A stretch of DNA of 59,490 bases, counting the filler, from Dugesia japonica (lineage: Eukaryota), in NCBI GenBank assembly GCA_001938525.1. It is 4 parts of 4 records of this genome, joined end to end, with 100 filler letters (N's around TTAATTAATTAA, not from the genome) between each part and the next. Parts side by side here need not be neighbours in the genome. Positions count along the whole stretch, not along the records: positions 20,271 to 34,170 come from MQRL01626900.1; 3 more parts are not named here. The stretch is one strand, 5' to 3'. A program made the translations under genes and the position numbers. Below, piece by piece: positions 1,133 to 36,563 of the stretch. Under the pieces are notes generated by a model. It did no database searches. It was given only the letters and a program-made list of their open reading frames with translations, and was not told where the DNA came from. How positions within the stretch are numbered: the stretch's first letter is position 1; each line of letters starts with the position of its first letter.

Positions 1133-1399
1133 GTATTTTTTCCAACAATAATATTTTCTTCATGATCTTTAATCACATATACGACAGGCTTCTGCTCGAT
1201 ATTAATCTTTGATATTTGAAATACTTCATCACTCCAATTATTATTGAAATTTTNNNNNNNNNNNNNNNNNNNNNNNNNNNNNNNNNNNNNNNNNNNNNNN
1301 NNNNNNNNNNNNNNNNNNNNNNNNNNNNNNNNNNNNNNNNNNNNNNNNNNNNNNNNNNNNNNNNNNNNNNNNNNNNNNNNNNNNNNNNNNNNNNACTTG

Positions 1400-8499: not shown

Positions 8500-9480
8500 T
8501 GCATGTTTAATGTGCTGTAATTATCATTTTCAAAGTCTTGAGTATATGATTCTCTGTACTCACTTTTTTATAGAGTCATAGATATGACATTCAAATGATC
8601 ACACTTTGTGCTTCCTGTTTTTAAGTGTCCATTATATCGATATATGCTTTAAAATGTTACCAACATAAAGTTTGATAATTAACGATTTCCAAAGATCTGC
8701 TCCTTGTAAAACATTGTAGTATATCTTTACTTATTGAATAAGTTTTTATCTCCTTTGTTCTAATTGGATGAACCAAATTTTGCTTACCAAAACCTAATTT
8801 AATGACTTGTTAGTACATATGATCCAACTCAAACTTTACTAACCATTAATTTGGCATCAGGTAATATCAATTTTGGTTCCTCAGTTTCAGTTTCTAAATC
8901 CATTCTGCTATAGGCTGCTCTCTTCATTTGAATGTGAACATTAACACATGGAATAAGATATTTTGGTTGATCCATGAAATACAGTTTTAAAGAATTACAT
9001 AAAGACAACGACATTGATAATTTAATTGACTTTTGTTTATCATCTTTATCTCCATAACCAATTGCTTCAAGACAAATGTTCTTATTATCTCTATTATAAT
9101 TCAAAACAGTTTTAATCATAGCTTTTTGAATATAATTTTCATTACCCCTGTTAAAAGAACAGCAACTTTTAACAGAGTACGAAGCACAAAGTTGCTTACT
9201 ACTACATCAGACTTTTTACACAAGTCTTTTCCAACTTTACTAACAATCTTTACTTGTACATACAATAAAGTACATATGATAATATCCAGATAATATCTTT
9301 GCGATTCATTTATAAAAAACTATGCATCACTTCTCCTTTCAGAAATTGAATTTATTGAACTTATCCTCAAATAATCCATATTCAATAATACCTTGAAAAG
9401 TTAGACGATCACAAATACATAGTTTAGTTTTACCCAAAATCCTTTATCAAATATAGTTACATAGTCATATATTAGTTTCT
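8500..9480 (-). mobile_element. Polinton major capsid protein (hexon-like) pseudogene fragment
   Basis: FMDQPKYLIPCVNVHIQMKR...KLILPDAKLMVSKV resembles the conserved F.Q.K.L..GV...I.L.R...K..I..A.L.V.KV segment of Polinton MCPs. Confidence 0.7.
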
Positions 9481-14934: not shown

Positions 14935-17480
14935 ATGTACAGCAAATTGCGTGGTTGAAAAGAATTGAAACGTTCTCAGCCACAATTAACTTCGACTTCA
15001 ACTTTTGATTTGTTTATTAGATAGCGACGCTAAAGATTTATGGCTAGCTTGCAAATCACTAACCAAAATGGACGACAAATCAACAAGAGATTGGTTCAAA
15101 TTAAAGTTCGACAAAGATAAATCCCTTTTACGAATGATTGAAGATTTCAGTATAATCAGTCAAAAGACTGATGAAAGATATGAAAATTTTGAATTACGAG
15201 TTACAAGAGTTCTGAAGAATATATTCGAATCCAGATTATCAATGGAAAGAATTGTGAAGAAAGTAATTCAGCAAAGAGTAAAATCTTAAGATTTATAAAA
15301 AGCCTTTGCCCTAAAACCAGATTTGAATGTTGATNATATGCGACAATTAGCTGAAAATTATGAAAAAAACGATGAGATTGAATAAAAATCATAAGTCAAT
15401 AAATTATCATATTCTAATGTGGCAGCAGCTAATTACCGCTCAATATCGAATAGGATTAACGGTAAAATATGCGAATTCTGAATAGGTCAATAGCATCAAG
15501 GCCAGCTCCTGTTGTTAATTATCCAGAACAAAAATTCTCAAAAAGAGGCAATAGATGTAATTTTTTGATGAATTGGATGAAGTAGAGCATGATTTGAACT
15601 ATTTAAACGAGAATTACTTCATTGTTTAAATTTCGTCTGTGGAGTCAAGACAGTAAGAACAAATCAAAATCGAAATTTAAACGTAGAAGACGAAATGTAT
15701 GTGAAGAGCAATGGAAGAATTTGGAGTGTGGTTAAAGTGAATGGTAGAGGTGTAGAAATTTTATGGGACACAGGATCATTGATTTCAGTAATGGATATGA
15801 ATGCTCGGAAAAGATGTGGTTCGTTTGCATTGGAAAACTCTGAGATAAAATTGAGTGGAGCATGTTCAAAGAAAGCCATTAAATGTTAAGGCCTCTGAAA
15901 AGTGAAAATTTATTACCATAATATGAANNNNNNNNNNNNNNNNNTGGTAGTACAGAATATAAGCCCAAAGTTCATTGGTGGAATAGACGTTTTCAAACTT
16001 TTTAATATTCAATGAAAGATAATTGGATTAATCGAGTTAGATAATGTAATGTGTAATGTTTCTGATGAGGATCGTTTAAGAGTCACTATGGGCGTTTTCA
16101 AACCAAGAGATGACACCTTGCAAAAATTCTTAACTCGTTTTGCCTCGATTTTTATAACGCATACGTTTGACCTGGGGAAACACACCTAGTTAAACATCCT
16201 ATTCAAACAACGAGGAATCCTGTCGTACAACAGCCAATATGACAACCGATGCATCTAGAAGGCAAAATTGATAAGATGATTGAAACACTTAACAAAAGTT
16301 GCATCATAAAAGAATGTAGTACGCTGTGGAACTCACCTATGGTGATTGTTAACAAAAAAGAATGGAGTTATTCGTATGTGTCAAGATTTCAGATTATTAA
16401 ATGAAACAACTGATAAATTTTTGTTTCCTATACCAGATCCTCAAATGTTATTCGATTATCTTTGTGAGTGTACAATATTTATAACACTAAATATAAGCCA
16501 AGCGTATTATCAAGTCGAACTAGAAGAGAAGATTAAAATTAAAACCACTTTTTTTACAAAGAAAGGTCAGTACAGCTATAATCGCATGCCATTAGGCCTA
16601 TCAACCGCTCCGGTTACGTTTCAAAAATTAGTGCATATAATTTTGTCAGGTATTCTATTTAAATGCGTTGTAGTTTATATCGATGATATTCTAATCTTTG
16701 CAAAAAATTAGAAAAAACATTATAGCATTCTATCAGAAATTTTTCAAAGAATTCAAGCATCTGGTTTTAAAGTAAATCCCGCCAAATGTAAACTCTATCA
16801 AGAGGAGCTTGTGTTTTTGGGTCATACAAAAAACAAATTTGGAAAAAATCACGGAGATTTTTAATGCTGGAATTCCGAAATGTACTAAACAATTGCGATC
16901 TTTTCTTGGAATGGCCAACTATTACAGGAATTTTATAAAAATACTTTCGCAACTTGCTTCACCTTTATATGCTGCTGCCGAAGGTCAAAAGCAGGAGACA
17001 ATGTGAACAAAAGAATTCAAGACGAGTTTCAGGAAAATCAAGGAAGCTCTCTGTAACTCTCTAGTATTGAGGTGTCCTAATTCAGAAGGTCAATTTATTC
17101 TGGAATTTTTTCAAGAATTGCTTCTGTACTGAGCCAATCACAAAACGGTATGGAAGTTGTTATAGCATATGGATCAAGCTTGTTAAACGTACCTGAAAAG
17201 GATAGGAGCTATCGACTCTTTATGAATTTATTCAACATTTTCGGCATTATCTTTATGGGAAAAGCTTTTTCGCAAGAACAAATCACAAAGCTTTAGAGTT
17301 TATAAAGAATTCGAAAAAACCGATTCCGCCACAGTTTCAAACTTGGATGAACGAGTTATTAGAATATGATTTCCTATTAAAGTATAGAAAAGGGGAACAT
17401 CATTACAATGCTGATGGTACGTCAAAACTGACGTCTTATATGCCAGTCTGAACATAAAAATGCCAAGTCTAAATTGTCTA
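14935..17480 (+). mobile_element. Ty3/Gypsy LTR retrotransposon internal region (gag-protease-RT-RNase H), degenerate and truncated
   Basis: Protease ILWDTGS; RT RMCQDFR, RMPLGLSTAP, YIDDILIF; LRSFLGMANYYRNFI; RNase H VIAYGS...HFRHYLYG...TNHKAL...HYNADG. Confidence 0.95.
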
Positions 17481-18680: not shown

Positions 18681-21609
18681 TAAGACCAATAAATTAAATA
18701 TATTTAATACATTACATTAAAATTTATTAATATTTTCAACACTTAGATCAACACATAGATAAGCAAGCAAGTATTCAATTATTTCTGATCCAAACTAGGT
18801 TTTAGTTGATATATATTATCATTATATTGGTTCTGTGCGTCACATCATAAATTTGGAGAACAAAGCCTTTTAGTACAAAATCATTTAGGTAATTTATAGG
18901 TAGCGTAATGAAATAATTATTTTTTTATATTTTTTGCTAATAGAAAGTGAGTTAATTTGGTAATAAATTACAAATCAATTCTTTTCAATTATAATTGTTT
19001 CGAAATAGCAGAGTTGTAGTAAAATAAATGATGTCTCAACAAATTAGTTTTTATTTGGAAAATGAATTATCAATTGAAGATATAACTAACAGGTAGTATT
19101 TAACTTCCTACCGAATGATACTAAAATCGACTCTATACGATCAAGTATATAAGCTATGGGAATTGTCAATCTTACATTCTTAACAACATATTACCNNNNN
19201 NNNNNNNNNNNNNNNNNNNNNNNNNNNNNNNNNNNNNNNNNNNTTATGCATTTAACGTCACTATGACAATACATACACAATAAAGTATCACCTGGGAAAG
19301 TTAAAACTAAATATTGAACTCCTGCGCATGTTTTTATATATAAAAATGTCAGCACCAGATCAAACCATTATATTTTTAAAACTAGTCCAAAGTTCAGCCC
19401 AGTATATTTGACCCCAGGTAAGTTTCAGCCCAGTTTATTTTAGCCTAATTTTTCGGCGGGTGGATAGGTATGGGATCATGAGCTACTATCTATCTACTCA
19501 AATGCTTCATCCGTTAGTACACGTACAAGTTGGTTTAAGCTCACACCAGCATTGTTCATTATTATATTTAGTGCCTTTTTAATATAGATATCACGGATTG
19601 ATTATTTAAGTGTTACTAAATGAAACACGTTTTGTTTAATAGTTACTTCTTCAGAAACATTGACGTTTAGCTTGAACTATGTTCCCAGATATTATCAAAC
19701 TGGCTTCTGCCAGACTTCAGTTTCTTTTCAAAAAAATGATATTTGTTGATTATTAATAGTAGTTTTTCAAGATTCAGGCTTATTTATCTGTAATTATGAA
19801 TTCTGTTGATGTAAGGTTTTCTTAATCGTTAAATAATAAATGACTGAGACAACTAATTTTATTTATTGAAATACACAAGTTGTACCAACCGTATTAGATA
19901 AATAAGCTATTCAGTACTATCCAACATGATAGGTTTATAATACATTCACGTTTATAATACTCCAGTTTACCAAACAACACTAATTTTTACGAGATATTCA
20001 CATTAATTTTCTACAATACACATTCAAAGATAATCGTAATATGATGATTGATTTTCTAATCAATTAATATAATGGTTAAACTGATTCAGGTCAGCTAAAA
20101 TTATGTAACAATCCAACTTATCCAATTGAAAAAATGTGAAACACCAGTTTCCGAGTTATTTGGCTGTAATNNNNNNNNNNNNNNNNNNNNNNNNNNNNNN
20201 NNNNNNNNNNNNNNTTAATTAATTAANNNNNNNNNNNNNNNNNNNNNNNNNNNNNNNNNNNNNNNNNNNNCTTTTTTGATCTACGCCTAAGTTTATTTTC
20301 GTAATTTTGAAAATATTTAATTTTTTTAATAATAATAATAATAAATAATAATAATGTTGGGGTGAATTACCCCGGTTGAGAAGAAATTCAAGGCCAGAAG
20401 CCAAATCAAAAAATAATAAGGAGGTGGTCAGAAGGAAAATCAATTAAGAATAATTATATGGCTAAAATATAATGACTTCAATTAATAAAAGTCAAATGGA
20501 AAAGAAAATGGGAATGAATATCTCAGATAAAAAGAATCCAACTCATCAATTCCAATAATTAAAGGAAATTATTAAAATATAAATAAAGATAAGAAAATAG
20601 TCAGAAAATAATAATTAATTAATGAAGGAAAAATTAATTAAGTTATTGTAAAAAAGAATTAAAATTAGGCAAAAAATCAGTTTTGGTCGAATAGATCCGC
20701 CCAGAAAAATCATGGAGACTTGGAATAAGAAATTCTGAAAAGGAAATGCTAAAGGGCAATAGGATTGCATAACAAGAAAATTCCATCAATATCAGGAGGA
20801 CCCCTACAAAGATTTGAAGTATGGGCCAATAAGAAGCCAAAAAAGAAAAATAAAACAAAGACCAGAAAATCACATGTTGACTTGAAAATAGACACCAATA
20901 GAAGTTCTAAAAATCTTGGAAAAAATCTGAAAATTGGCACCATAAGAAGCAAGAATTTCAAATTAAAAATAGAACACCAATGAAGGTACTGTCAGGGCGT
21001 AATCAGAAATGGTATAAAAACCCCGCTGTATTTTAGTCGAAAAAACAAATTTTTGCTAATATTTGAGCGTACAAAACTCAACCTCATTTTTCTCAATGTT
21101 ATTAAGTGATTTGTATTACGGCTATCTAGAAGGAAATTAGGTGAGAAAGTTAACAATAAATCATCACTCAACTATTCGAAAGATCACAAATTTTTTGTAA
21201 GATATCTAATTGTGCTTACTTTGGAATCATAGGAAAGAAGTATTTTAATGAGAGAAAGGAAAAGGAAATCAAACAGGAAAATTTTTCAATCAATATTCAA
21301 CGTAATTATCACAGTTAACCGTTGCAGAATCCTGAAAGTCATTTAGAAGTAATTTATTGATTTATTTATGTCATGATATTAAAGTTACATAATAAACGAT
21401 GGAATTTTTTCTCATTCAATTATTATTTAGTTTGTTAAATATGAATAAATGAAAAGTAAAACCGTGAGTATAATCCATTTTATTTAAGAAAACTCAAAAT
21501 AAAATACATCATTTAATGTTATTATATATTATGAACAGTTATTAATAAATGAAATGTAAAACCGTGAGTATAATCAATTTTATTTAAGAAAAATCACTCA
21601 CTAATTTTC

Positions 21610-22880
21610 TATTCTATGATATAATGGAGCATGTAACGAGACTAAATTCTAAATCAAACATTCCCATCATTGGAAAAGTCGGAAGCTTCATTTTTCGTTG
21701 AAGATCGATAAATAAGATAATGTCCAAAGTTCTGGCGAGTTGACGTATCTATTTTCTGTTTACTCAGTTAACCACACGATGATAGTTCGATAATTCTACA
21801 TAGCCAAATTACGCATCAATAAAAAATCTACAACTGTTTTCTTTTGCACTGACAAATTCTACAATTAATCAACATTATCTGTTTTCAACTGCGACATTTG
21901 AATGAAATATCGACAATTTTCATAACTGTCACACACACGTCGTCGACCTGGATTTACTTTCATTAATATTAATATCTGAGTAGGATTTATAACGAGTATA
22001 GGATAGTAGTGTGTATGGCGAAAACTGACACCATTGCAATTGACTCATTTACATTCTTGTGAAAATTTCTGTAGTTATTTAATCACCAGTTGTCTGCAGG
22101 ATTATCATGATATCGATTATTAATAGACTCGTTACTCTGATTAAAAAGTAAGCATAGGAATATCCTGATGATTCGTTCGGTTACTAGTGTCAATCACCGC
22201 ATTATTATTCTGAGTACTATTACTGATATTACTACCTTTTTATTATTATCATTAACATACACATTGTCATTACAACTTCTATTATTACTATTATTTTATG
22301 GTTATTAAAAATATTTTTACGCTAATTTGTTTTATTATTTATGATTACTATTAAAAATTTTATCGTTGTTAGTACTATTGTGGCTACGATTCATATGTCG
22401 GTTATTGTGATTAAATTATCATCATCCCAATAATTATCATCAGCGAAATTATAATCATTGCTGTTATCTTCATATTTGCCACCAATAACAGTGGTGACAT
22501 TATTAAGTAGCTATATCATTCAGGTGGTTACGACGAGCCCAATCACTAACATCATTATTAAATTACTCCTTGCCGAAGATATTATTAATATTATCATTAT
22601 TAAGTTCCGATTAAAATTATAATGGATAGATATACCCACCATCATTATTACTATTACGATTATTTACGTTATTCTTCTTCTTATTATTAATTGTTATCAA
22701 TTACTATCATAATTACCATTATTATTATTACTATTAGAAATTATTTCATTTACTATCATGATTATCAATATTATTATTACTATTATTATTACTATTATTA
22801 TGAGTATTATTATGAGTATTAGTACAGTTATCATGATTGATTTAAGTATTATTATTAAATTTGATAGTATAATTATGAAC
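21610..22880 (-). pseudogene. Decayed Asn-rich ORF divergently oriented to array ORF A (copy 1)
   Basis: Long degenerate (ATT/GTT/ACT/ATC)n tract reads AAT/AAC/AGT/GAT on the minus strand. A similar tract precedes ORF A copy 2. Confidence 0.4.
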
Positions 22881-23142
22881 CAGGAATGCGCCTGTTAGGA
22901 TACTTATGATCATCGTCACTATTCCTGTACGCTTTTAATTGTTATTAACGGACTTCCTGCTGTCAACAATTCTGCTAGGCCAGGTAATAGATCTAGAGTC
23001 AGGGTAATATCTTGCCATGAGTAATGATCGCACCTAAGAAGTTTTGAGACATCAATTTTTCTTAAAACTATACTTAGCCCTAATCGATAGGCCCATAATT
23101 AGGTCGAGAAAAACTTAGGTTTAACTTTACATTATTTAGGAT

Positions 23143-23328
23143 ATGCCTGCTGAGCTAAAAAATTCACTACTCTTGATTTGGAAGCAGCGTAAATCGGCTC
23201 GGCTCAAACAGCTCATTGGTCACCGCTTGTTTCCCCAGCTGGTGGAGCATCCTGACGAGACAGACTTACAATGTTTCGTCGAGATGTTCTCATTGGGTTT
23301 TAACGTAGACATGGAGGAGGAAAATTAA
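23143..23328 (+). CDS. Array ORF A copy 1 (61 aa, unknown)
   Basis: tttag|GAT ATG start, AATAAA near 23374. Protein homologous to 25220 and 28353 (LLL...RLKQLIGHRLFP...HPDETDL.CF.EMF). Confidence 0.7.
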   Translation: MPAELKNSLLLIWKQRKSARLKQLIGHRLFPQLVEHPDETDLQCFVEMFSLGFNVDMEEEN

Positions 23329-23929
23329 TACTGACGTTAATGCATGCTCCAATTATGTACTGTCAGTTTCATTAAATAAAATGTATTCTAGTTAAATTTT
23401 TAGTTATCGATAAGTGTCCCGTTGCATTTATATCATATTATAAATTTAAATTGATCATAATGAACTGTATTTTATAGTGGAATGGTAGTCCACGTGTTTG
23501 AATGAGGAACTCAATCATAAAAAGGAATTGTTTAATACACAGCCACTGCAAAATTGTTCTCAGAATTATAAAAGTGAAGACTCATATTTTAAGTTAATCA
23601 AAAAAGGAAACGGCCAAAAGAAGAAATCTACACAAACTTATTTGCCCAAAACGGAAAAAGAAAATACATCAGTGTGTTTACCCGTTGCAGAAATCTGAAG
23701 ATTGATATAAAAGTAAATCTTTAGAATTTATATCATGATAAAAAAGTTTTAATTAAAAAATCAATTTTCGGTTATATTTATATCATGTTAATAATTTTAT
23801 GTCTATGCAATAATAAATGTTTATTAAATTAAATCAACTCATGTTTACTTCATATTATACACGTTTTTAAAATGTATACGGAAATATATAAAGTTTTAAG
23901 TAGCTTTCATTTAAAAAACAAATCACTCA

Positions 23930-25150
23930 TTTCAGTCAGAATTAGTATATTTCCGTGTCATTATTTTTATGCAATTGTAAGCGAGATCTAGGAAAATAAC
24001 TCCAGTGTTTGAGTAATATTCATAGATTCATTTGAGAATTGTTGGATTGATAAACATAAGAAATTTCCGATTTTCAGAAAAATGAAGCATTAATTCTTGT
24101 TATCAATAAGTCTACAGCAGGATAGTGTTTGTGTTCTTCAATGTTGTTGCATGCACGATAGTAGAAAAATCCACATGAAAGCTGACTGACGGAGAGTTAA
24201 TTCTGACTCATTTAACAACTGCCTTATAAGTGAGTGTTCATTGTAGTAGAAATTTGTCAGTTCTACCTTTTAATAATCGTGATATATGAGTCAGTCACCT
24301 TGTGCTTAGCATTTCTGATATCATCATTCCTGGTGGATAATAAAAGCGTTAACAGTGTTAAAGTTCATTGGTATTATTACTAATGCCTTGCTATTTCCAA
24401 TTATCAGTAATTAACTTTCGCAATATTCCAATTGTTATATAGTTTCTTGATGTTAACATGATTGCAACTGTTATTGATCCTAATAAGATTACTGATATTG
24501 TTAATAGCGTTAGGATCATTAATTTTAGCAGAATTATTAGTATTATTATTAGCATAAGNNNNNNNNNNNNNNNNNNNNNNNNNNNNNNNNNNNNNNNNNN
24601 NNNNNNNNNNNNNNNNNNNNNNNNNNNNNNNNNNNNNNNNNNNNNNNNNNNNNNNNNNNNNNNNNNNNNNNNNNNNNNNNNNNNNNNNNNNNNNNNNNNN
24701 NNNNNNNNNNNNNNNNNNNNNNACTGTTAGGGAATGTATTGTTATTTAAGTTAGTATCGTTGGAAAATGATTGTTCCTATTGTTGTGAATGTCGTTTATA
24801 TTACTATTATAAACACGGTGTTCACGATAAGTATAATGAATGATTGTCAGTATTCTAAATATGAACCTGGTTCTTAAGGTTTTTACACCATTACTACTTA
24901 AATTATTCTGTAACTTTATCATTAGGATTATCGTTATCGTTGTTGCTAAGGTTGTTACTAGTGTTACCTTGATTTTCCCTATGAAACATTATTGCCTTTA
25001 GTATTAAGGTTTTACTAAGTTAAACGAGCTTTCAAAACATCCTGTCTAATTATAATAATACACATTATGATATGATAATATAATCAGCGTTACCTAATTA
25101 TTATTAACAGTATTGAACGCCGGGTTTAGTTTTCTTTTCTTTAACAATCA
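23930..25150 (-). pseudogene. Decayed Asn-rich ORF (copy 2)
   Basis: Same low-complexity character and same position relative to ORF A copy 2. Interrupted by an N gap. Confidence 0.35.
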
Positions 25151-25219
25151 TAACGATATTTAATACGGTAGATTATGCCACATAAATCTTATGTTTAAAT
25201 AATCCCGGTATTTTAGGTC

Positions 25220-25410
25220 ATGCCGGTAGAATTCAAACATACACTGCTTTTGATTTTAAAACAACTTAAGACAGCACGCCTGAAACAGCTTATCGGACAT
25301 CGGTTATTCCCCAACCTAATAGAGCATCCCGATGAAACTGACTAAAGTTGTTTTTTTGAGATGTTCCCGTTGAACCGTAACGTAGATGTTGACAAGGAAC
25401 GAAACAAAAC
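25220..25410 (+). pseudogene. Array ORF A copy 2
   Basis: ttttag|GTC ATG; MPVEFKHTLLLILKQLKTARLKQLIGHRLFPNLIEHPDETD*SCFFEMFPLN. Many synonymous differences from copy 1. Confidence 0.75.
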
Positions 25411-25551
25411 TCGTAACTGCGTCTTAATTTGTTTTGTTAAATGTGGTTATTTTACTAAAATAAAATCTTNGACCTAATTTTCTGCTTCATAGTTTTTCTT
25501 TTTGCACATATATTGTTTATTTATATGTAATTTGTTTATGTGTAATTTCAG

Positions 25552-25880
25552 TGGAATTTAAATGGGAGCTGTTATTAGATCGTCGAACGGGTCGAATGAT
25601 ATTCAACCAGTATAAAAATCCATTTAACCGAGATGCTCGAGTTTTTGCGGACCGGTCCAACCTTTTGACCGAAGATGCAGATGAGGAACAACGATAGTAC
25701 GCCACTGAGCGTGACGCCTACTACGATTGGACAGGCCCCAATCATGCTCGCGAGGTGTATCACACCATTACAACTTCCTCTCCCGATAGTGATAGTGAAC
25801 TTCACACAAATATTGAGTGGAGGGAGGCCCCTCCGCTGTCCCGATATCTACACCGCACTTGCCCCCTTTTTCTGGGTTGA
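25552..25880 (+). pseudogene. Array ORF B copy 1
   Basis: tttcag|TG; EFKWELLLDRRTGRMIFNQYKNPFNRDARVFADRSN..., homologous to 28721-28988. One internal stop; AATAAA near 25953. Confidence 0.7.
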
Positions 25881-26102
25881 GCGAGTTCATTGATAACATG
25901 TTATGGGGACTCAGACTCCGAGAATCAATTAGATGTTTCTTGTTCGGTTAATAATAAAGATTTCATTGCAGCTTTGTCTTACTGCTTTCGTGGATTCATT
26001 AATGTTGTTTTTGTCTTTAATAATAGTTGAAATAACTTAGAGCCTGTTTAAGTACCATTTGATAGGTGAGAGTTCGTAGTTATTGATATAATTTTCTTGT
26101 AG

Positions 26103-26461
26103 TACATTCATCAATTAACCGATCAGTCGCTCCTACAAAGAAAGTTGGAGAAAGTAGCGAAGACATCGATATGACTTGGGATGTTTACCGTCTTGCTAAA
26201 CGCCACTGGGAGGCCGACACAGCTGCTGCTGAGAGCAAGGTAAAGCGGTATAAGAATAAGTGCATCATGTTTCGCAAGGAAGCCGAAGCTTAACATGCGT
26301 AGGAACGCANTTNGAAACAGCAATTAGAGTCNTATCCTGAAATCATCNNGNCCCTCTATGACCGTGAAAATAAACTGGTGGCAAATGTAGTGGAGTTGCG
26401 GAAACGTATGCCGCTTGAACCCTTGATGATAGACAAGTCAACACAGACCCCACCACCATAA
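26103..26461 (+). pseudogene. Array ORF C copy 1: coiled-coil protein with C-terminal DKSTQT
   Basis: ttgtag|TA; DMTWDVYRLAKRHWE...LYDRENKLVANVVELRKRMPLEPLMIDKSTQTPPP*. Two internal stops. Confidence 0.7.
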
Positions 26462-26597
26462 CAAGCTGTGATTAAATTTTATGTATAAAAATAAATTTTC
26501 TTGATTGTAATCTTATGACAGGTGTTCATTTCGTCCTCTTAATTTGTAATAATTTTTAAACTGAATTAATCATTCAAGTTAACTTATTTAATTGTAG

Positions 26598-26956
26598 TGC
26601 CTAGAATTATTTTACCAACAAGCCTTCGCCGTTGTAACAGGCTCATACAGAAATCTTTACTCAATCGCCACATCAAACTTCAAAACGAACGAGCGCTTCT
26701 ACGTTACCTCACACAGAAAAACCGCCTAATAAAAAAATTAGATGTTATCGTTAAAAAACAGAGCTGGCGGAACACATCAAGCAGGTTCTTCTCCATAAGA
26801 TAGAATTCTTACAACAATATATCGTGGATATTGCAAACCGCCTTGATCAAGAAAACGTGGACCCGTTAGAACAGCGACGATGACGTTGCTGCCTTTAAAT
26901 TCATGGATACCGTGCCTACCCAGTGGTTAGATCCTGGGATGCTGGAATTTATGTAA
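26598..26956 (+). pseudogene. Array ORF D copy 1
   Basis: ttgtag|TG CCT AGA; PRIILPTSLRRC...ERALLRYLTQKNRLIKKL...NSDDDVAAFKFMDTVPTQWLDPGMLEFM*, with frameshifts. Homologous to 29766-30125. Confidence 0.7.
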
Positions 26957-27014
26957 TTAGCGAAAAATATATCTTAATTTCAAGTTTTTTCAAGTCGTTT
27001 AATAAATAAAATAA

Positions 27015-27277
27015 TGGAAAAAGGTTTGAAAGAAAAGGTATACGAAAGAAAAGGTATACTTCAAGTATATGTTGGAAGTCAAGCGCTTTGTACCAATAGC
27101 CTAGTTAGGGACATTAGGTAAATTCTTGAACGGGTCCCTTGAGGGCTGTTTTTTCCCCAGCCCAATTTTTCTTGTATAAACTCAGGTGGGACCCCAAAAA
27201 TAATAATAATGTTGGGGTCTACCTGCGTTTGTTGTAGAAAGATATGACTGCGGAAAAAAGTAGCCCTCAGGGGATCC
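27015..27277. mobile_element. Two head-to-head element termini (CCCCAAAA | (AAT)n | TGTTGGGG)
   Basis: 27210-27277 is an imperfect inverted copy of ~27130-27199; both resemble ~30295-30364. Confidence 0.6.
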
Positions 27278-27790
27278 ATCCAAGAGGCGTTAAACAATGT
27301 TGTCCTGTGTCTATGACTATCTTTAGCCTTGCAATCGATTTTTTGATTCAAGATACAGCAAATAAATTTCCATTCATCAATACAGATTTTAATACAGCCA
27401 TCCTTGCCTACGCTGATGTCCAACAATCAATTGAAAAGTGTCTCTATGTTAAACAATATTGTTAGTCTCTCTGAGATCTATCAACTCCGGTTAAGACCCA
27501 GCAAATGTGGTTTCTTCACCAATAACAATCTGTTCACTTCGAGTGACGTTTAAATCTATGGCGAACATTTCCCAATCATCGATGAAGATAACCTTTACAA
27601 TTACCTCGGTGTGCCTTTTGGCGAAAAAAAGAAATGCAGCCTTGAAAAACTTATCTCTAAAGACATTGAGGACTACACCAAAATTTCTGAATCTGACCTT
27701 CATCCAGCTCATAAAATACAAGCGTATAACGTCAAAATTTACGAAATTCATAGTATATCCAATAAGGAGTATAGTTAAAAATCTGGTTCG
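27278..27790 (+). mobile_element. RLE-type (R2/NeSL-like) non-LTR retrotransposon RT fragment
   Basis: RGVKQCCPVSMTIFSLAID, LAYAD and YNYLGVPFG motifs. Confidence 0.85.
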
Positions 27791-28352
27791 GTGATCGATA
27801 AACATTTGATTGCCACCAAGTAGAATAAAGAAATTCCTTTAATCCTCGTTGCAGATTCTGAAACATTTTCAATAAGTATGAGTTTTGTTTCCGTTTCAAT
27901 TATATGTTAATCATGTAAGATAATCATTAAAAGTTACTTATTCTGTATTTATTAATCTGTGATTATGATTTTGTAGTCGATGATTAAACAGTGATACCCG
28001 ATTCGCACAGCCCAAATTGCACCTCGCACCTAACAATCCCGTAACTATCCTACTATAATTGGACGCAAACTTAAAATCAAAAAAAGTATTGAGTTTATAA
28101 AGATGGAATGCGTGTTAAAATATTCTATTACTCACACCGCTATTCAGGGATAGAGATTCAAATAACACCCTGGCTTCCAGAATTTGCAGATAAAGTAACT
28201 TGATTACTATGACTATGCAATTAATCTATATCATTGTTAGTCATATTTGCTACCATGATCGCTCTCAGCCGAAATCTGGGCTTATGTCTAATTTTCAAGG
28301 TCATACAATCTACATATTCAATTATGCCATCTTACGTTATTTTTTCTAGATC

Positions 28353-28523
28353 ATGTCCGAAGTTCTCCACACTACTTTACTACTAATCCGCCAAGAAAGG
28401 AAAATATCTCAACAGCGGCAAATGATCGCCCATCGATTGTTACCAAATAGGATCGAACCCCCAGGCGAGAAGGACCTCGCCTGCTTTGTAGAGTTGTTCC
28501 CAATAAATTCAAGTCGTGGCTAA
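28353..28523 (+). CDS. Array ORF A copy 3 (56 aa, below the ORF-track cutoff)
   Basis: ttctag|ATC ATG; MSEVLHTTLLLIRQERKISQQRQMIAHRLLPNRIEPPGEKDLACFVELFPINSSRG*. Confidence 0.7.
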   Translation: MSEVLHTTLLLIRQERKISQQRQMIAHRLLPNRIEPPGEKDLACFVELFPINSSRG

Positions 28524-28720
28524 TGTAATCTTTATTAAATGCTGGACTGTCGTCAATAAACATAACGTAATTTGTCGTTGACATGGTTCATTCCGAATGA
28601 TTTTTAATTCATTTTATAGTAAATAAAATATTCTACTCGTTACAAACTGTTGACTTCCTTTTATCTTCAATTGATTTTACTTAAATACATGTATACCTAT
28701 GTTATCCTTTTTATTTTTAG

Positions 28721-28988
28721 TGACCGAATTTGATGGATGTTGAAAGTAGATAAGGCCACCAGCCAAACAGTATTTCAACGTGTACTTAATCCATATAACC
28801 GGGACTCAGGGATACTAGTAGATCGATCAAACATGCCCCACGAAGTGGCAGCCGACCGCCGACAACTCGACTCAGCGGAGCGCTGGTGTTATCAACATTG
28901 GTCGAAAGACACGCAAACCTTTGGCGAATCCACCTTCCCTCTGTCCTCTCCGGAACTCGACATGGACAACTATTATGGGCACTACTAA
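28721..28988 (+). CDS. Array ORF B copy 2
   Basis: tttttag|TG ACC GAA TTT, then a 1-nt slip into WMLKVDKATSQTVFQRVLNPYNRDSGILVDRSN. AATAAA near 29011. Confidence 0.7.
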
Positions 28989-29258
28989 CCCATTTTCTCT
29001 TTTTGTGAGAAATAAAGATAATTGTTAATCGACTTCCAGCTCATGTTGTTTTATTCATTCTTACCAATTTGATTATAATCAAGGTTTAATTACTAATGGG
29101 TATTAACACTTTTGGATTAATAATTCTGTCCTTTACTTAAATAACTTCCTGATCAATATTTAAGTTTATTCCCCACAGGTTTAACACTAAACGAACCTCA
29201 CACTTTTTGACTAGTTAGAAGGTTGCTGGTAATATTGAATTAAATTAATTTCGTCTAG

Positions 29259-29616
29259 TGAATTCATCCCGTTATCGGTCTGTCGCTCTCATTAAGAAAA
29301 TAAGAGAGAGAGGTTAGGACCTCGAGATGGCCTGGGATCTGTACCGGTTATCGAAAGGAAAATGGGAGACCGAAGTTGCTAATAAAGTGCCATAGCTAAG
29401 CGGGCTCGGACTCGTTGTAAGGAGCACAAGCTTGAGATGAAAGTCTCCCACCATTAGAACCGCCTCTGGAAAGACCAGTTAACAACTCACACTGAAGTAA
29501 TCTAGTCCTTGCATCAACGTGAGACATAACTAGTGATTAATATTATAAAGCTGCGGGAACAACTACCATCCAAGCCGTTATCAAAAGACAAATCAACGCA
29601 AACTCCCCGCTCGTAG
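29259..29616 (+). pseudogene. Array ORF C copy 2 with DKSTQT
   Basis: gtctag|TG AAT; DLEMAWDLYRLSKGKWE...SLHQRET*LVINIIKLREQLPSKPLSKDKSTQTPRS*. Confidence 0.7.
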
Positions 29617-29765
29617 AATTATTAATGGAAAAACTCATGTAATGTAAAATAGATATTTGGAATGATCGTTATCAATTTTTCTTTGATGTTCATACCCCTG
29701 TTGAAAATTATGTCTTTACTAGAATTCTGTTGCCTTTATTTATCTGATAATTGTTTTTATTCTAG

Positions 29766-30125
29766 TGCCCAGAGTCGGTTTACCCAATTCTCTATGTCGA
29801 TGCTACAAGTTATTGACGAAATTCATCATAGAAAGACACTTTTCGAAAAAAAGTGAGCGGACTTTGCTCAGGCGACTGTCGCAGAAAAATTGTCTAATTA
29901 AAAAGCTCGAGGTCTCTAGTAAGAAACAGCTGGGATCGCGAGTTGCACCAACAATCAGCTTTTTAAAAAATTACTTTTCTAAAACAATACATCGCCGACT
30001 TGTCTGTGCGTCTCGAATTGGAAAAGTGGACTTTATGAAACAGTGACGATGACGAGGCCACGTTTGACTTTGCACACGTTGAGCCCGCTCAGTGGTTAAA
30101 CCTTGAAGAGATACATTTTATGTAA
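29766..30125 (+). pseudogene. Array ORF D copy 2
   Basis: ttctag|TG CCC AGA; PRVGLPNSLCRC...ERTLLRRLSQKNCLIKKL...NSDDDEATFDFAHVEPAQWLNLEEIHFM*. Confidence 0.7.
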
Positions 30126-30529
30126 AAATAAGTGTTTCATACAAATCACACATTTTTGTTTCAATAGTTATAGGTAAAAGGGAAAATGTAGAACCCGAAA
30201 CAGCAGGATGGGAGCGTGTACTTAAAGTACGCGTTGGTAGTCAACAACTCCATTCATAAAAGCCTGGCCATAGATGCTAGGTTAAATTTTTCGCGGGGTT
30301 CACGGAGTGCTGATTTTCCCCAACACCATAGTTTTCTATTCCTCACTAAGATGGATCCCAAACAATAATAATATTAATAAAAATAATAATAAAATGCAAC
30401 TATACTAGTAGTTATTTCTTCATTTTCTACTTGTTCCGTAGATACTACCAGGCTCTTTATCCTATGTAGTGTGTAGTGTCAATATGGTACATAAATGTTT
30501 TTACTAGTTCACACTCACTCATCTTCATT

Positions 30530-31001
30530 ATTAGTGAGTGCGACATTTTTGTTCTTAAAGCTTTACAACTGGTGGTTTTTCGAACAAATTGTTTTATTGA
30601 GACCGGCTTATTACTTTCATAACAGTCAAGGTATGACTGATGTTTTAATTATTATTCTTTATTGTTATGCCTTTTGCCTTCATCGTTGTTATATCACTCA
30701 AAAGGCTTTAACACTTCGGCATCAAGAAAATCCATTCTTTGAAGTAAACCCCTTTACTTTCGTCCTTAAATTTCTCAATGACTGAATTGAGACTCTTACT
30801 GTAAAAGTGGTGGCTTGTGTTGTAATTTGATATGTCCAATAACTGGTCCTTCACCATCAAACCGGTTATCTTTTCCAAACTTATGCCTACAACTTCAAGG
30901 AAAAGGCTATCAGTTTCTCCGGCTACTATATTTATTTTACGACGGTATTTTTCCAACTTCAATATACTGTAGTTTGTACATTCGTAAATTTGAGAGGTCA
31001 A
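30530..31001 (-). mobile_element. Polinton protein-primed DNA polymerase B C-terminal fragment
   Basis: AGETDSLF (DTDS motif), LDISNY...HHFYS...VIEKFKDE, EWIFLMPKC*S, KAKGI. Confidence 0.9.
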
Positions 31002-31036
31002 GTACTGTCTGTTTAATGTAGCTCAGACGATCTAAA

Positions 31037-32300
31037 TGTTGGGTTACTAGGCTTTTGATGTTCTTTTTGTTACTTCTGTCCTGGTCGAAATGTCGTTTTC
31101 TTGATTAAGATTTCTATCTGAGTGATGATACTTTGTAGCCACAAGAATTTGTGTGATGTCTTCTCTGGCGTCACGATTCCCCATTCCCGAATTCAGCGGG
31201 ACTATGCTGTGTCTTGTGTTTATTAATTTCGCCTTTATTGGCCCTATTCTTTTTGTGCTGTTGTATTTTGTTAACACGGAAAGCTTACAATAAAACTCTA
31301 ATTACTTTTAAACAATAACTTTATTTCGATATTTATAACATTATTCGTACAGATTAATGATTTCCTCGTGCTTTTATTTTTTTACGTCCTTGTTTGCTCT
31401 CCACGTCTTTGTCAGAGCCCGGACCGTTGCTATTAAATTTCTTTCACGATCGGCGTTTGCTTTTTTAATATCCACTCTAATCCGACAGGTCTGTATTAGG
31501 GCGAGATCGCGCTACTTTAATTTGACATTCTTCTCAAAACCATTGAACCGGCGCGAATCGTTTCTCGAAATAATAATATTTTTGATTGAAAATAATAATT
31601 TTAGATTTCTTGTTTCACACATATAATTAAGGATATAAACATGATTGATTATAAACAATTTAATATTAATATATTATTCTAATTTGGAATTCATTCCTCT
31701 TTCGCTACATATAATTATAATTTCTAAATTCCACTTCTTTCTTTAAATTTAATAATATTTATTCGATAATAATAAAAAATAATAATATTTATCACAAAAT
31801 AATAATAATGATACNTTTTAATGTTTTAATAAGCACAATCTTTGTCCAATATTTGTCCAATCTCCAATAATACAATCATCCTCTTCCTCCATAATCTGGT
31901 GGTCCTCTTCTTCTGTTATTTGGCTTTCTTTCTCCACGGTCTGTCAATCCACTTCTTTAATCTGATAATTTTCGTCATCAGATAAAATGATAACGTCTTC
32001 CTTCCTTTCCTTGGCTGGAAAACCGTTCATTTCATTTCCCCTAATCTCCTTAAATAAATTTCTATTCTTTCTTATAAATTGTGAAATATGCTGTGCATTC
32101 TGTGTGTGGAAATTAAAATATGTCCATACACTTATTCTTTTACAGTTAGAACAGATGTAGTATCTTATCCCATAATACCATTGACCATAATATTTCTCCA
32201 TAATATCTTGCCAATGGTCATTATGAACTGGACTTCAGCAGTATTTTGTACAAAATTTACATCGGTCGAGAAAATATTAACAGATTCATTATAAATACTA
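31037..32300 (-). mobile_element. Second-family small-ORF element end (terminus TGTTGGG at 31037)
   Basis: 31037-31280 is homologous, in inverted orientation, to 38100-38361. Carries ORF H (31341-31622) and a CxxC zinc-finger/acidic ORF (~31830-32270). Confidence 0.65.
31341..31622 (-). pseudogene. Array ORF H copy (coiled-coil, SIM-like tail)
   Basis: MCETRNL...RDLALIQTCRIRVDIKKANADRERNLIATVRALTK...EEIINLYE*, homologous to 37727-38042. Two internal stops. Confidence 0.7.
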
Positions 32301-32879
32301 CATTAACATGATTAATTATTTTAGACTGTATAATTTGCAACAATGTTGCATATTGAAACTTATGTTAATTATATAACATTTCTATAATTTTTATTAATAT
32401 AACAAAATAAATAACTTAAATATATCAATTGAAATTATATGCATGTCTTAAAATTAACTTGCAAGTTTTAAATGCAAAATAAAGCAAATCAACATAAATT
32501 CAAAATCACATCATTATTATTATTTAAAAATCAATCAAATCATATAAAAAGTCTATAATTTATTATTATTGAGATTAATAAAACTTTTAAAATAAATCTA
32601 ACTTCAAAAATAAAATATCAATTTTTAGTGACAATTGAAATAGATTATTTGCTTTGAGAGAAATCGTATAAAATAGTTCAGAATCGCTTTCTGTTAAATA
32701 TTTACTTAATTCTTCTAATTCTGTTATGTATAATTCATTTTTCAACTGTATAGTATGATAACTTACTTTAGAATACTCTATTTTAAATTTTACATATTTT
32801 ATTGGATAATCTTCTTTAAATATTGTATAAATATTACTATAATACTTAAGATCCATTTTGTTAGTCTTATGTGGGAATC

Positions 32880-33350
32880 TAAATCTATTTTCGATTTTTA
32901 CATTTTCAAATATAATAAAATATGGTTATTCACAACTAATAGTTAAATAACCCATATGAGATATATAAACGTTTTCATTTTCACTGACAGTCAAGGATTG
33001 NNNNNNNNNNNNNNNNNNNNNNNNNNNNNNNNNNNNNNNNNNNNNNNNNNNNNNNNNNNNNNNNNNNNNNNNNNNNNNNNNNNNNNNNNNNNNNNNNNNN
33101 NNNNNNNNNNNNNNNNNNNNNNNNNNNNNNNNNNNNNNNGATTTTGAAGCTCAACAATGAATTTACTAGCATTATTATTCGGATGAATAAGAGGACAGCT
33201 ATTACTCGGTAAATGTGTATAGAAATCATTCGATTTCATTATAAACTAAGTTTGATGCTAATATCTAAGTAGGTTTTTCATATCCAACCCACTTAACATA
33301 ATATTGTTTATTCTTTTTTGTCCTTTNGACTTTATAATTTTTTCAATTCG
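32880..33350 (-). mobile_element. Polinton integrase chromodomain end plus minor capsid (penton) start
   Basis: VKWVGYEKPT*I, followed by MKSNDFYTHLPSNSCPLIHPNNNASKFIVELQN. Confidence 0.85.
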
Positions 33351-33359
33351 AAATATCCT

Positions 33360-33532
33360 CGGTGGAGGAATCACATGTAATTCTTGCTCATAGAACTTTC
33401 ACTGCGGCTATCTGAGCTTCTCAATAATTTTGGCGAGTCTGTACAGCTCCCAAGACATCCCTTGGTCATCGCTGTATTCTCTTCGACACTTACAGGTGTA
33501 TAAAGGGGTTGATTGTGCTCTATTGTTACTCA
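33360..33532 (-). pseudogene. Array ORF C copy 3 (5' fragment)
   Basis: cttctag|TG AGT...EYSDDQGMSWELYRLAK aligns with DIDMTWDVYRLAK and DLEMAWDLYRLSK. Confidence 0.65.
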
Positions 33533-33779
33533 CTAGAAGATAAAGAATCACTTATTTTTTATTTATCAATAGCATTTTGAGGATTATTTAATAAAGAGAG
33601 TTTACAATAAAATAATATGCCCATTTTTTGTATTTTAGTTAGCAAGAAAGTCACTATAGAAGTATGTGTGTCTTAGTTAAAAAGAAAAGTATTTAATCCC
33701 AATTTTACAGTAAAAAACACAGAATGAACGATCCACAGACATTTCCTATAAAATACATTTCCTTTATAATATATTTCCT

Positions 33780-34170
33780 ATATAGTAAATTTTTAACTTT
33801 TTCTGAGCGTATACTTTGTTCCTCATCTTTGTTTGTTGTTTTGTATATTTTAACGTTTCTTTTCCTTTTTGGATCCTCATGTTTGTTTAAACACTGCTCG
33901 CAATCTGGTAATCGTGAAAGTGCATCAGCATTAATATGTTCACGACCTTTTTTAAATTTTACAATCATATCAAAGATTTCCAGTTCAGCTTTCCATATGT
34001 AGTATTGTGACGTATTTTTGCTATTTCAAATAAGCATCCATTTTAATGCTTGATGATCTGTTCTTACTACAAATTATTATCCCATTAAATAGTGCTTAAA
34101 CTTGAGAACAAACACATATATTGCCAGAAACTATTTTTTTGTGATGCAGTACTGTTTCTGACTTTTTGTT
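33780..34170 (-). mobile_element. Gypsy RNase H fragment
   Basis: QYCITKK*FLAI...FKHYLMG..FVVRTDHQALKW...KKGREHINADALSRLP. Confidence 0.9.
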
Positions 34171-34297
34171 NNNNNNNNNNNNNNNNNNNNNNNNNNNNNN
34201 NNNNNNNNNNNNNNTTAATTAATTAANNNNNNNNNNNNNNNNNNNNNNNNNNNNNNNNNNNNNNNNNNNNATCTTTATTTTTATTTTAATAATTATT

Positions 34298-34330
<33 letters not shown>

Positions 34331-36563
34331 AATAATAAATTGACAAATTATTTTAAAAAATTTACCACGAAATCTGTCCAAGTTATTGGAGGTTTCAGGC
34401 TTCTGAGGATTATAATAGTTAATAGTTACATTTTTACCATTGAAATGCATATTTAGTTTATTATCGTGAAATTGAAATGTCATATTGAATTCATTTTCGT
34501 TCTTAGTGATTTCTATGTAAATTAATAATTAAACGAATAATATAAGTTTATAAAATTTATAAATTTTTGTCTTGATATAAATTTCATTTTTAAAATTTTA
34601 GATAGGTCATTGGTGAACTTGTGCCAATTTTGTAACCAATTTCTTGTTAATAGTCTTTAATTTGATTTAACTTACTTTAACCAAAATCAAGCAGCTGGTT
34701 GAAGAAATGCAGGCACTCCACCTTTTTTGCATATGATGTATTAATACATTTATATATGACTCCTAGCACTATCAAAAGTAACAGAATTCTATTATGAGGA
34801 AGAGTTACAACTGGAAATATAATAAAAATCCACTTTGTGATTAAATTTAGTTAATACATGATTTAAGCCCGGCAAGGTAGACATCTTTTACTCCATTTTT
34901 TTAAAAACTTTTTTCTTTTCTCCTTTAATAATTATTGTTGGTGATGATTCTTAAAGTTCATTTTTTTAAAAACCTTACCAATTAGAACATCGTAAAAGGA
35001 AAATTTTAAAATAAATACATCAATTTACAAATTAGTAATGTGTAATTAATACAAAAATTGTAAATTGCTGGTGGATTTTTGGNNNNNNNNNNNNNNNNNN
35101 NNNNNNNNNNNNNNNNNNNNNNNNNNNNNNNNNNNNNNNNNNNNNNNNNNNNNNNNNNNNNNNNNNNNNNNNNNNNNNNNNNNNNNNNNNNNNNNNNNNN
35201 NNNNNNNNNNNNNNNNNNNNNNNNNNNNNNNNNNNNNNNNNNNNNNNNNNNNNNNNNNNNNNNNNNNNNNNNNNNNNNNNNNNNNNNNNNNNNNNNNNNN
35301 NNNNNNNNNNNNNNNNNNNNNNNNNNNNNNNNNNNNNNNNNNNNNNNNNNNNNNNNNNNNNNNNNNNNNNNNNNNNNNNNNNNNNNNNNNNNNNNNNNNN
35401 NNNNNNNNNNNNNNNNNNNNNNNNNNNNNNNNNNNNNNNNNNNNNNNNNNNNNNNNNNNNNNNNNNNNNNNNNNNNNNNNNNNNNNNNNNNNNNNNNNNN
35501 NNNNNNNNNNNNNNNNNNNNNNNNNNNNNNNNNNNNNNNNNNNNNNNNNNNNNNNNNNNNNNNNNNNNNNNNNNNNNNNNNNNNNNNNNNNNNNNNNNNN
35601 NNNNNNNNNNNNNNNNNNNNNNNNNNNNNNNNNNNNNNNNNNNNNNNNNNNNNNNNNTGAACTATTTAATTTATTCATTAAATTTTTGAAATGCGAATAA
35701 TATTATAATAAAAATATTATAAACGATTAAAAATTCATGTAAAATACAAACCTAAATCCGACATTAAATATATATGTGTTTGCACGAAATTTAGAAGGAA
35801 ATTATAGTATCTAATTTCAAGACTATAATCTGTGAGTTCAACCCATAATGTTCGGTAACTATTATCTATTGCATAAAATATCAATCCCTGATATTTATTC
35901 ACATAAATTCGTAAACCAAGTCCTTCTTCCAAGAAAAAAGCTTCCTTTTCAATTTCCAAACTTCCTTGCCAAAATGAATTTGAAATTTCTGAAGAAAAAC
36001 TAATTGATTCATCTATTTGTTGAGCTGAAACAAAAGAAGCTAAATTTTATAAATTTCACCAAAATTATTAAAAACGTTTTATTTAATTTCATTATTATAC
36101 TTTAATTTTATTGGATTCGTTGTCAATAATTTAATTGGAATAATTTAATAGTAATTGTGGGAGAAAAGTTTCAAAAAACAAAATAATTTAATTTTAATTT
36201 ATGAATAACAATTATTGCTAGAATAATTGTTGGATTTATCATTTCTCAGAATTCATTAAAATAAAAGTTTAGATCAAAAATTTTTTTTTGGTTTTTGATA
36301 ATTCTAAGACGAACAAAAGTCAATTCCTGACAAAGACAAAGTCGAAAATATTTATTATCAAAAACCAAATACAAAAAAATACTGGATCGAAGATTTTATT
36401 TTAATGAATTAATTTATGAAAATTATATTTCTTCAGAAAATGTTATAATGAAATTAATATTTTCTTATTTATAATATATTAGTAAGTTTAATAATTATAT
36501 TAATTTTGAACTGTTTAACTTTGATCGTATTAAATTAAAACTGTTAAATTTTAATTTGCATTA

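Follow-up and report, generated by a model that had tools for sequence, protein, structure and literature searches.

A selected cassette of four small open reading frames in fixed order, carried by a repeated mobile element of Dugesia japonica

The question raised by this locus is what a recurring series of short open reading frames (ORFs) is doing in a Dugesia japonica assembly (GCA_001938525.1). The window analyzed is a eukaryotic stretch of 59,490 nucleotides with a GC content of ~26%, joined from four records, gapped and dense with transposon debris. A first-pass annotation of 21610..30364 had described an ordered array of tiny spliced genes, A-B-C-D, in an unclassified mobile element. The cassette consists of four small ORFs in fixed order, is carried by a repeated mobile element, and has been retained by selection. 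It is real and unusual, and it belongs to an integrase-type element of an unclassified kind. The reading favored as a whole, which is held to be moderately probable, is that the locus contains decayed copies of this element with an accessory unit whose start codons are partly supplied by a leader.

Self-tblastx and six-frame profile scans recovered the A-B-C-D order twice, as claimed, with A1-D1 of unit 1 lying within 25217-26956 and A2-D2 of unit 2 within 28350-30125 (Table 1). The distance from the A acceptor to the unit end is 1983 nt in unit 1 and 2015 nt in unit 2. The motifs cited by the first-pass annotation (KQLIGHRLFP, NP[FY]NRD...DRSN, and NSDDD...QWL...FM followed by a stop) are present in the copies, and the third A reported near 23.1 kb is the open ORF A3. 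The third C reported near 33.5 kb on the minus strand is genuine homology (profile match with an independent E value of 6e-5, next best 3.5; acceptor at 33533) that is limited to a ~130-nt fragment, C3. A chance match within an integrase tail was considered for C3 and rejected; the homology to integrase debris at 49.4 kb breaks off at 33400, and C3 comes with a phase-1 acceptor of its own. The cassettes lie inside the annotated span, and the feature continues to the left of it, where the shared motif (21320) and a TGTTGGGG end (20355) are found. The full unit would span ~4.8 kb if counted from 20355; the sequence from 20355 to 21310 has no match elsewhere in the window beyond the TGTTGGGGT end. 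GC is 0.40-0.49 in the ORFs versus 0.22-0.33 in the spacers of 140-270 nt. Only A3 and A2 are unbroken; A1, B1, B2, C1, C2, D1, and D2 carry stops and/or frameshifts.

Ungapped tblastx codon blocks were used to compare units 1 and 2, which gave proportions of synonymous (pS) and nonsynonymous (pN) differences of 0.81 and 0.32 over 289 codons, with 120, 69, and 183 mismatches at codon positions 1, 2, and 3. The signal is gone when the shifted frames are pooled (0.48/0.42 and 0.29/0.50). Taken singly, the seven blocks are significant only in the proposed frame (p of 2e-3 to 3e-16), with p of at least 0.06 in the shifted frames. A3 compared with A1 gave a pS of 0.88 and a pN of 0.16. B and C have ratios of nonsynonymous to synonymous substitution rates (dN/dS) of 0.31 and 0.20; in A and D, dS has reached saturation. 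These values bear out the purifying selection that had been proposed. The copies diverged long ago while coding, and decay followed insertion. The order has stayed fixed while silent sites saturated, which argues that the four proteins long served the element. A dN/dS near 1, an order that is not conserved, and identity as exons of one known gene had been named as outcomes that would speak against the cassette; none of the three was found.

Over 140 nt, units 1 and 2 share 64% identity at their right ends, which finish with CCCCAAAA (27199) and CCCAAACA (30364) before ATAAT. The sequence TGTTGGGGT starts both the inverted end at 27210 and the end at 20355, which follows directly on (AAT)n. The inverted end aligns with the unit 1 and unit 2 ends at 58/81 and 46/81 positions, and neither score was reached in 1000 shuffles. 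The similarity of the 20355 end to the right ends is not significant past the first 10 nt (212, 335, and 942 of 1000 shuffles reach the score). The ends are of the TG...CA type with short inverted repeats, as in long terminal repeat (LTR) elements. A 4-nt ATAA duplication is compatible with all four junctions, although the microsatellite makes a duplication unprovable. AAT/ATT arrays occupy <1% of the window, so the (AAT)n targeting looks real. Public run X1 contains contigs ~10-12% diverged from C1/D1, A2/B2, and C2. Summed X1 depth is 9141 over the unit 1 terminus, the maximum for unit 1, 317-908 over C1/D1, and 14-129 over unit 2; single contigs have depths of 5-11, and the sum is not a copy number. 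The depth shows a dispersed, diverged family, and together with the termini it supports the mobile-element setting. A short palindrome ~140 nt before the right end (27054-27068 and 30215-30232) pairs in both copies, with one compensatory change between the two. Folding of the termini is not significant (z of -0.67, -0.04, and -1.91), the terminus pattern has 0 matches in viral and 0 in metagenome contigs, and the 3 Rfam matches in 20-40 kb were all below threshold and were rejected.

In each of the ORFs, an AG marks the point where protein similarity sets in. These AGs were ranked among 814 AGs with the author's crude acceptor score, which placed 8 of the 10 in the top 7%, C2 at 10%, and A1 at 31%. 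The pyrimidine-rich AGs noted at the ORF starts are thus good acceptors, but they are not rare, with 51 scoring at least 6.5 within 20.4-30.4 kb. The proposed acceptors are distinguished by the protein similarity that starts there, not by score. The A copies have their own ATG three bases past the acceptor. The acceptors of B, C, and D all have phase 1. Six of the seven copies (B1, B2, C2, C3, D1, and D2) have TG directly after it, the exception being C1 (TA); the background is TG after 27 of 552 strong AG sites in the window. Four-fold degenerate sites are identical between the copies at 14/59 positions, and both are G at 2/59. With these sites randomized, a valine codon would lose its G, and a methionine codon must keep it. 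D1 and D2 have no in-frame methionine in the first 60 codons, though this stretch is conserved. From these features we infer that the start codon of B, C, and D is made by splicing to a leader that ends in A.

A candidate for this leader is an upstream motif that occurs once before each A, with 3 matches versus 0 in 100 shuffles for a pattern derived from these same copies. It reads as an acceptor-like TTGCAG, 21, 22, and 21 nt (units 3, 1, and 2), and then A/GTA in all three units (the slash marks a splice junction). The C and D stops fall at homologous places in both units, and no convincing shared donor was seen by eye among 10 in-register GT[AG] sites. With the AATAAA signals after several ORF ends, these features point to alternative last exons rather than exons of one gene.

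Database searches of A-D gave no recognizable named protein, in agreement with the first-pass annotation. A HMMER search with A only, against 1.84 billion representatives, returned 2 matches. P0001 is an intact 60-residue homolog that begins with methionine on a 1041-nt contig outside the window (E = 1.7e-11, 47% identity to A3); P0002 was rejected as a 20-residue match in a repetitive 1608-residue protein. Word-based searches with A3 and C1 only gave 1 candidate for A3 and 2 for C1 (X placed at breaks), none significant. Searches for A in metagenome and viral contigs gave 317 and 61 pattern matches, with 0 confirmed. Seven pieces of A-D had a best Pfam E value of 0.063, all under the cut-off; PHROGs gave nothing better than 0.075, PDB sequences gave 0 matches, and ESM Atlas had no usable match for A3 or B2 (C and D were outside this search). 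Homolog-search coverage of B, C, and D is thinner than that of A. The AlphaFold model of A has two helices with a predicted local distance difference test score of 82.5; it has no Foldseek match at E = 0.001 in the viral or PDB libraries, and the best VIA Z of 4.6 is uninformative for a small helical fold. The first part of D is strongly basic (net charge +12 to +16), and its tail is acidic and aromatic. This arrangement recalls a trans-activator, and the analogy suggests that D is a putative one. The C1 model has one 44-residue helix and a shorter one, with a predicted template modeling score of 0.35. DKSTQTP is identical in C1 and C2 at the C terminus and agrees letter for letter with the stretch of Mokola virus P that is listed as LC8-binding (PMC3789673). 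C is most likely a helical adaptor for the dynein light chain LC8, as predicted from this motif. No hydrophobic segment of membrane-anchor length is present in the 7 A-D frames (maximum 19-residue hydropathy of 0.82), and the products are probably soluble and act in regulation or trafficking rather than as envelope or fusogen proteins. B2 contains KDTQT.

The coding cassette and its selection are solid, and the following model of its expression is a specific proposal built on them. A retroviral-type integrase would insert family members at ATAA within (AAT)n, and the present copies would be decayed descendants of such insertions. The right-hand 2 kb would be an accessory transcription unit, and its accessory-unit-like layout, as described in the first-pass annotation, is supported. 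A single upstream promoter would drive a short non-coding leader exon ending in A, and splicing would join this leader to a single acceptor out of the four in the series. The exon reached in this way would hold an entire small ORF, complete with a stop codon and probably a poly(A) site, so one protein would be made per mRNA. A would use the ATG that it carries; in the other three, the last A of the leader and the TG of the exon would form AUG. Unspliced RNA could not translate B, C, and D because their AUG would form at the junction.

Several observations weigh against this picture. RNA runs X13 and X16 were aligned to 26352-32990 using about a quarter of each run, with A3, A1, B1, and the start of C1 lying outside. 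Depth over the ORFs is ~0-1 in X13 and 0 in X16, and no splice joint falls at the D1, A2, B2, C2, or D2 acceptors among the 15 of 46 joints listed. Reads 99% alike to the locus number 0/396 and 0/206, and strand is mixed, sense over D1 and antisense over C2. The transcripts had been called spliced; no junction at an acceptor is among the joints listed, and splicing is deduced here, not observed. The upstream motif translates as RCRxLK, which ends an open stretch in units 1 and 3, and the motif may thus be the end of a decayed fifth ORF (63/2000 shuffles with the motif and 616/2000 without it). The unit 2 motif is not significant in plain local alignment. A leader ending in T (TTG/TTA, leucine) also fits 7/7 starts. 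AATAAA was noted after several ORFs and does lie within 100 nt of 6/9 ORF ends, counting A1 to the end homologous to A3, but the enrichment over 165/544 background bins is weak (binomial p = 0.027). The stops of D1 and D2 (TAG at 26867 and TGA at 30036) stand at a homologous place directly before a 28-codon tail that is itself selected (pS 0.80, pN 0.29, p = 4e-4); this shared stop is unexplained and may be coincidence, readthrough, or a fifth mini-exon. The choice of codon blocks by tblastx biases them toward amino acid similarity, although this does not explain the saturation of silent sites. [KR]xTQT occurs 7 times in the six frames of the window, and the LC8 argument rests on conservation of the motif, not on its rarity. 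Finally, no reverse transcriptase (RT), integrase, or pPolB lies inside any unit.

The shared phase of the B, C, and D acceptors would also suit alternative last exons fused to a common coding leader peptide through a valine or leucine junction codon, which is considered rather improbable. In units 3 and 1, donor-like sites with a final A precede A by ~990 nt (22148 and 24230); the somewhat GC-richer DNA in front of them may once have been coding. The TA of C1 would be silent if the codon were TTG/TTA. Under a coding leader, nothing would constrain the first two exon bases, yet TG recurs in three unrelated ORFs far above its background, and neither tblastx nor nhmmer finds homology between 21.6-22.2 kb and 24.0-24.3 kb. 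A slightly smaller chance is given to mini-genes, each with its own promoter and YAGT as initiator, a type found in baculovirus early genes, or to a polycistron resolved by spliced-leader trans-splicing. The AT-rich spacers flanking each ORF, often with AATAAA, fit mini-genes, and the good pyrimidine tracts at 9/10 starts (all but A1) are also needed for trans-splicing; D, however, has no methionine from which a mini-gene product could start. The flatworm-type spliced leader ends in AUG, and others end in G. The former would give phase-0 frames, which are not conserved and reach a stop within 23 codons, and the latter would make GUG. The exon-like sizes, AG acceptors, intron-sized AT-rich spacers, and presence of three units within 10 kb could suggest that the segments are exons belonging to a single gene, of the host or of a transposon, or else form a tandem host gene cluster. 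This explanation is largely refuted and very improbable given the homologous terminal stops in C and D, the intact 60-residue A homolog, the lack of convincing shared donors, the TG...CA termini in a microsatellite, the position of C3 on the other strand amid transposon debris, and the many diverged relatives in X1. The splice-made start codon is preferred to all three.

The class of the parent element is a separate matter, and a DNA element is compatible with the splicing model. The first-pass annotation had proposed a large or giant element of Gypsy or Ginger type, which is not established. An LTR identity, as a long LTR or the 3' region of an LTR retroelement, is the leading single candidate while falling a little short of even odds in the author's estimate; a Ginger-like element is distinctly less favored, and other classes together slightly less again. 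The absence of pol is compatible with the LTR reading since solo LTRs lack pol, and the ~4.8-kb unit is within the 1.9-6.5 kb given for Ogre LTRs (PMC6431247). The shortness of the match between the 20355 end and the right ends (~10 nt) also speaks for an LTR. Inspection by eye found purine-rich tracts before the last 130-145 nt of both units that do not abut a TG start, and both right ends are followed by ATAAT, not by the TGG looked for as a primer-binding site. A Gypsy pol remnant at 15.0-17.5 kb (RVT_1 9e-20, RT_RNaseH 6e-9) is cut off from 20355 by a gap and a microsatellite. The alternative parent, a Ginger-like element with terminal inverted repeats (TIRs) or a Polinton relative, would have 27210 as its left TIR and a poly(A) site per ORF in the style of a DNA-virus late unit; it is possible but doubtful. 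The ~80-nt inverted terminus is within Ginger TIR length, and the TGTNR-type ends and 4-bp duplication fit. X1 depth is far greater over the termini than over the interiors (9141 versus 317-908), a pattern that numerous short derivatives would give, and poly(A) signals inside the unit would be a burden for a genomic RNA, whereas a DNA element would not suffer from them. The inverted copy, however, is nearer the unit 1 end than the unit 2 end, which is unexpected for a TIR of unit 2 itself, and the end at 20355 agrees with the right ends over no more than ~10 nt. No integrase-like DDE transposase is recognizable in six-frame translations of 20.35-30.4 kb, with which non-autonomous derivatives are still compatible. 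Described Gingers have TGTNR ends, 40-270 bp TIRs, 4-bp duplications, and a single transposase; Ginger1 targets CCGG/CCGT and Ginger2 targets RTATAY with a preference for AT-rich sites (PMC2836005), and here 4/4 junctions are in (AAT)n. An undescribed class is unlikely, though worth stating: an integrase-inserted, microsatellite-targeting invertebrate element with a virus-like battery of small proteins lacking known relatives, each from a separate mRNA, a leader-supplied A, and a dynein light-chain adaptor serving intracellular transport, of which a second family, E, would be a sister lineage.

Family E comprises small, charged, helical-looking ORFs at 36555-38361 (+) and 31037-31535 (-). The ORF common to the copies shows purifying selection (62 codons, pS 0.69, pN 0.28), and both copies end in ACCCAACA. 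The E acceptor at 37726 reads AG/TG, and the conserved frame looks like phase 2. E is possibly a sister element of the cassette element. A likeness of C to E3 seen by eye was dropped because the profiles do not cross-match.

Around the units, decayed (ATT)n tracts at 22200-22870 and 24350-25100 hold matching positions upstream of A in units 3 and 1; unit 2 lacks them. After A3, at ~23478-23700 (+), a weak AG/TG opens a ~75-codon frame with one early stop and a KSTQT, which may be a decayed ORF or chance. The spacers at 20171-20270, 34171-34270, and 43457-43556 each read 44 N, TTAATTAATTAA, 44 N; one sits 85 nt before the 20355 end, and the joins are possibly unreliable. Nearby pieces resembling RT, pPolB, and integrase are either external to the units or look like insertions of their own. 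A decayed RT piece at 27274-27780 (+) directly follows the inverted terminus; it has no Pfam RT match, and from RGVKQ.CP, LAYAD, and YLGVPF we take it to be R2/NeSL-like non-LTR. The pieces at 30708-31022 (-), 33170-33400 (-), 8829-9206 (-), 1021-1404 (-), and 49300-49600 are presumably Polinton-like pPolB, integrase-chromodomain, and capsid debris and lack Pfam support. The pPolB-like (30.7-31.0 kb) and integrase-chromodomain-like (33.2-33.4 kb) pieces are outside the right terminus, and relatives of the former are the best-covered RNA in 26352-32990 (depth 31 in X13). A decayed compact Gypsy gag-protease-RT-RNase H region lies at 14990-17450 (+), and a second RNase H piece at 33705-34121 (-) precedes C3 by 170 nt on the strand that carries C3; a link of either to the cassette is unproven. 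The window also contains exons of what is probably a host gene of glycoside hydrolase family 65 at 44328-50416 (-; weak Pfam E values of 5e-4 and 0.11), a Mariner helix-turn-helix domain at 6.0-6.4 kb, and a hAT dimerization domain at 56.6-56.9 kb. A host-gene exon used as a query returned no homolog.

Table 1. Positions of the cassette ORFs, upstream motifs, and element ends in the window.
Feature	Coordinates	Strand	Remarks
Left-type end TGTTGGGGT	20355..20364	+	directly after (AAT)n; probable unit 3 start, candidate link
Upstream motif, unit 3	21320..21351	+	candidate leader exon (21 nt) whose final A precedes GTA, or decayed fifth ORF end
ORF A3	23143..23328	+	open, 61 aa; own ATG 3 nt past acceptor AG 23138-23139
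Upstream motif, unit 1	23683..23715	+	22-nt candidate exon
ORF A1	25220..25408	+	own ATG; stop inside at 25343; 69% identity to A3
ORF B1	25552..25880	+	AG/TG start, phase 1; stop inside at 25695
ORF C1	26103..26461	+	phase 1, reads AG/TA; long predicted helix; DKSTQTPPP end; stops 26291, 26300
ORF D1	26598..26956	+	AG/TG, phase 1; basic N-terminal part, acidic-aromatic tail; mid frame breaks, stop 26867
Unit 1 right terminus	27060..27199	+	opens with short palindrome; followed by ATAATAATAA
Inverted terminus copy (TGTTGGGGT...)	27210..27290	-	58/81 vs unit 1 end, 46/81 vs unit 2 end
Upstream motif, unit 2	27847..27878	+	21-nt candidate exon
ORF A2	28353..28523	+	open, 56 aa, own ATG
ORF B2	28721..28988	+	AG/TG start; frame break in first codons, then 84 open codons
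ORF C2	29259..29616	+	AG/TG, phase 1; DKSTQTPRS end; several stops, one frame break
ORF D2	29766..30125	+	AG/TG, phase 1; frame break near 29930, stop 30036
Unit 2 right terminus	30222..30364	+	ends CCCAAACA, then ATAAT; 64% identity to unit 1 terminus
Fragment C3	33400..33532	-	AG/TG acceptor, phase 1; carries MxW[DE][LV]YRL[AS]K; the chromodomain-like integrase debris that comes next is unrelated

Complex retroviruses and the adenovirus major late unit join a shared leader to a series of acceptors and make small regulatory proteins, with separate poly(A) sites in adenovirus. The likeness of the cassette to these is an analogy of layout only; no sequence or fold similarity was found. Further parallels come from transposable elements. 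The gypsy env start codon is formed at a splice junction by AT from the 5' exon and a G (PMC2585583; bioRxiv 2023.08.03.551782), and gypsy and errantivirus env resemble the cassette in being a downstream ORF whose start, as proposed here for B, C, and D, is reached by splicing and made at the junction. Gypsy env differs in being one ORF joined as AT/G, whereas the cassette has four tandem ORFs of 55-120 codons joined as A/TG, with no gag-pol seen and no membrane segment over the 7 frames of the kind found in errantivirus env or FAST-like sORF2. The ORF3s of rotifer LTR elements are separate spliced units (PMC5408684), and splicing is coupled to early termination in plant Copia (PMC5580714). 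The MDG1 group of Drosophila (412, Mdg1, and Stalker) carries short helical accessory ORFs, sORF1 and sORF2, and a short poly(A) isoform (PMC11952523), and shares with the cassette the presence of such ORFs within an element. In that account, sORF2 is a myristoylated transmembrane FAST-like protein, unlike A-D, and the sORFs usually precede gag, whereas the four ORFs of the cassette adjoin the right end. The giant Gypsy elements Burro of planarians and Ogre of plants are alike in having accessory ORFs, internal tandem repeats, and multi-kb LTRs; the extras of Burro are BIR, BCL2, MATH, and env, mostly in the polyprotein, and none of these was found in the cassette. Ginger1/2 are similar in TGTNR-type ends, the fit to a 4-bp duplication, and terminal repeat length. 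The cassette differs from them in having no integrase-like transposase, four ORFs without named relatives, an (AAT)n target, and left and right ends that do not clearly match.

No description of four tandem ORFs without named relatives, three of them dependent on a leader for their start, was found in the literature searched, whose scope excluded Repbase and subscription journals. Gene finders that rely on ATG would miss B, C, and D if their start codon exists only after splicing. Most accessory ORFs of transposons lack annotation, and the small number studied altered views of their elements, as with the fusogen sORF2 (PMC11952523). If the model is correct, the cassette would be a compact switch in which one leader chooses among several accessory proteins, and the predicted LC8 motif would link it to cell transport.

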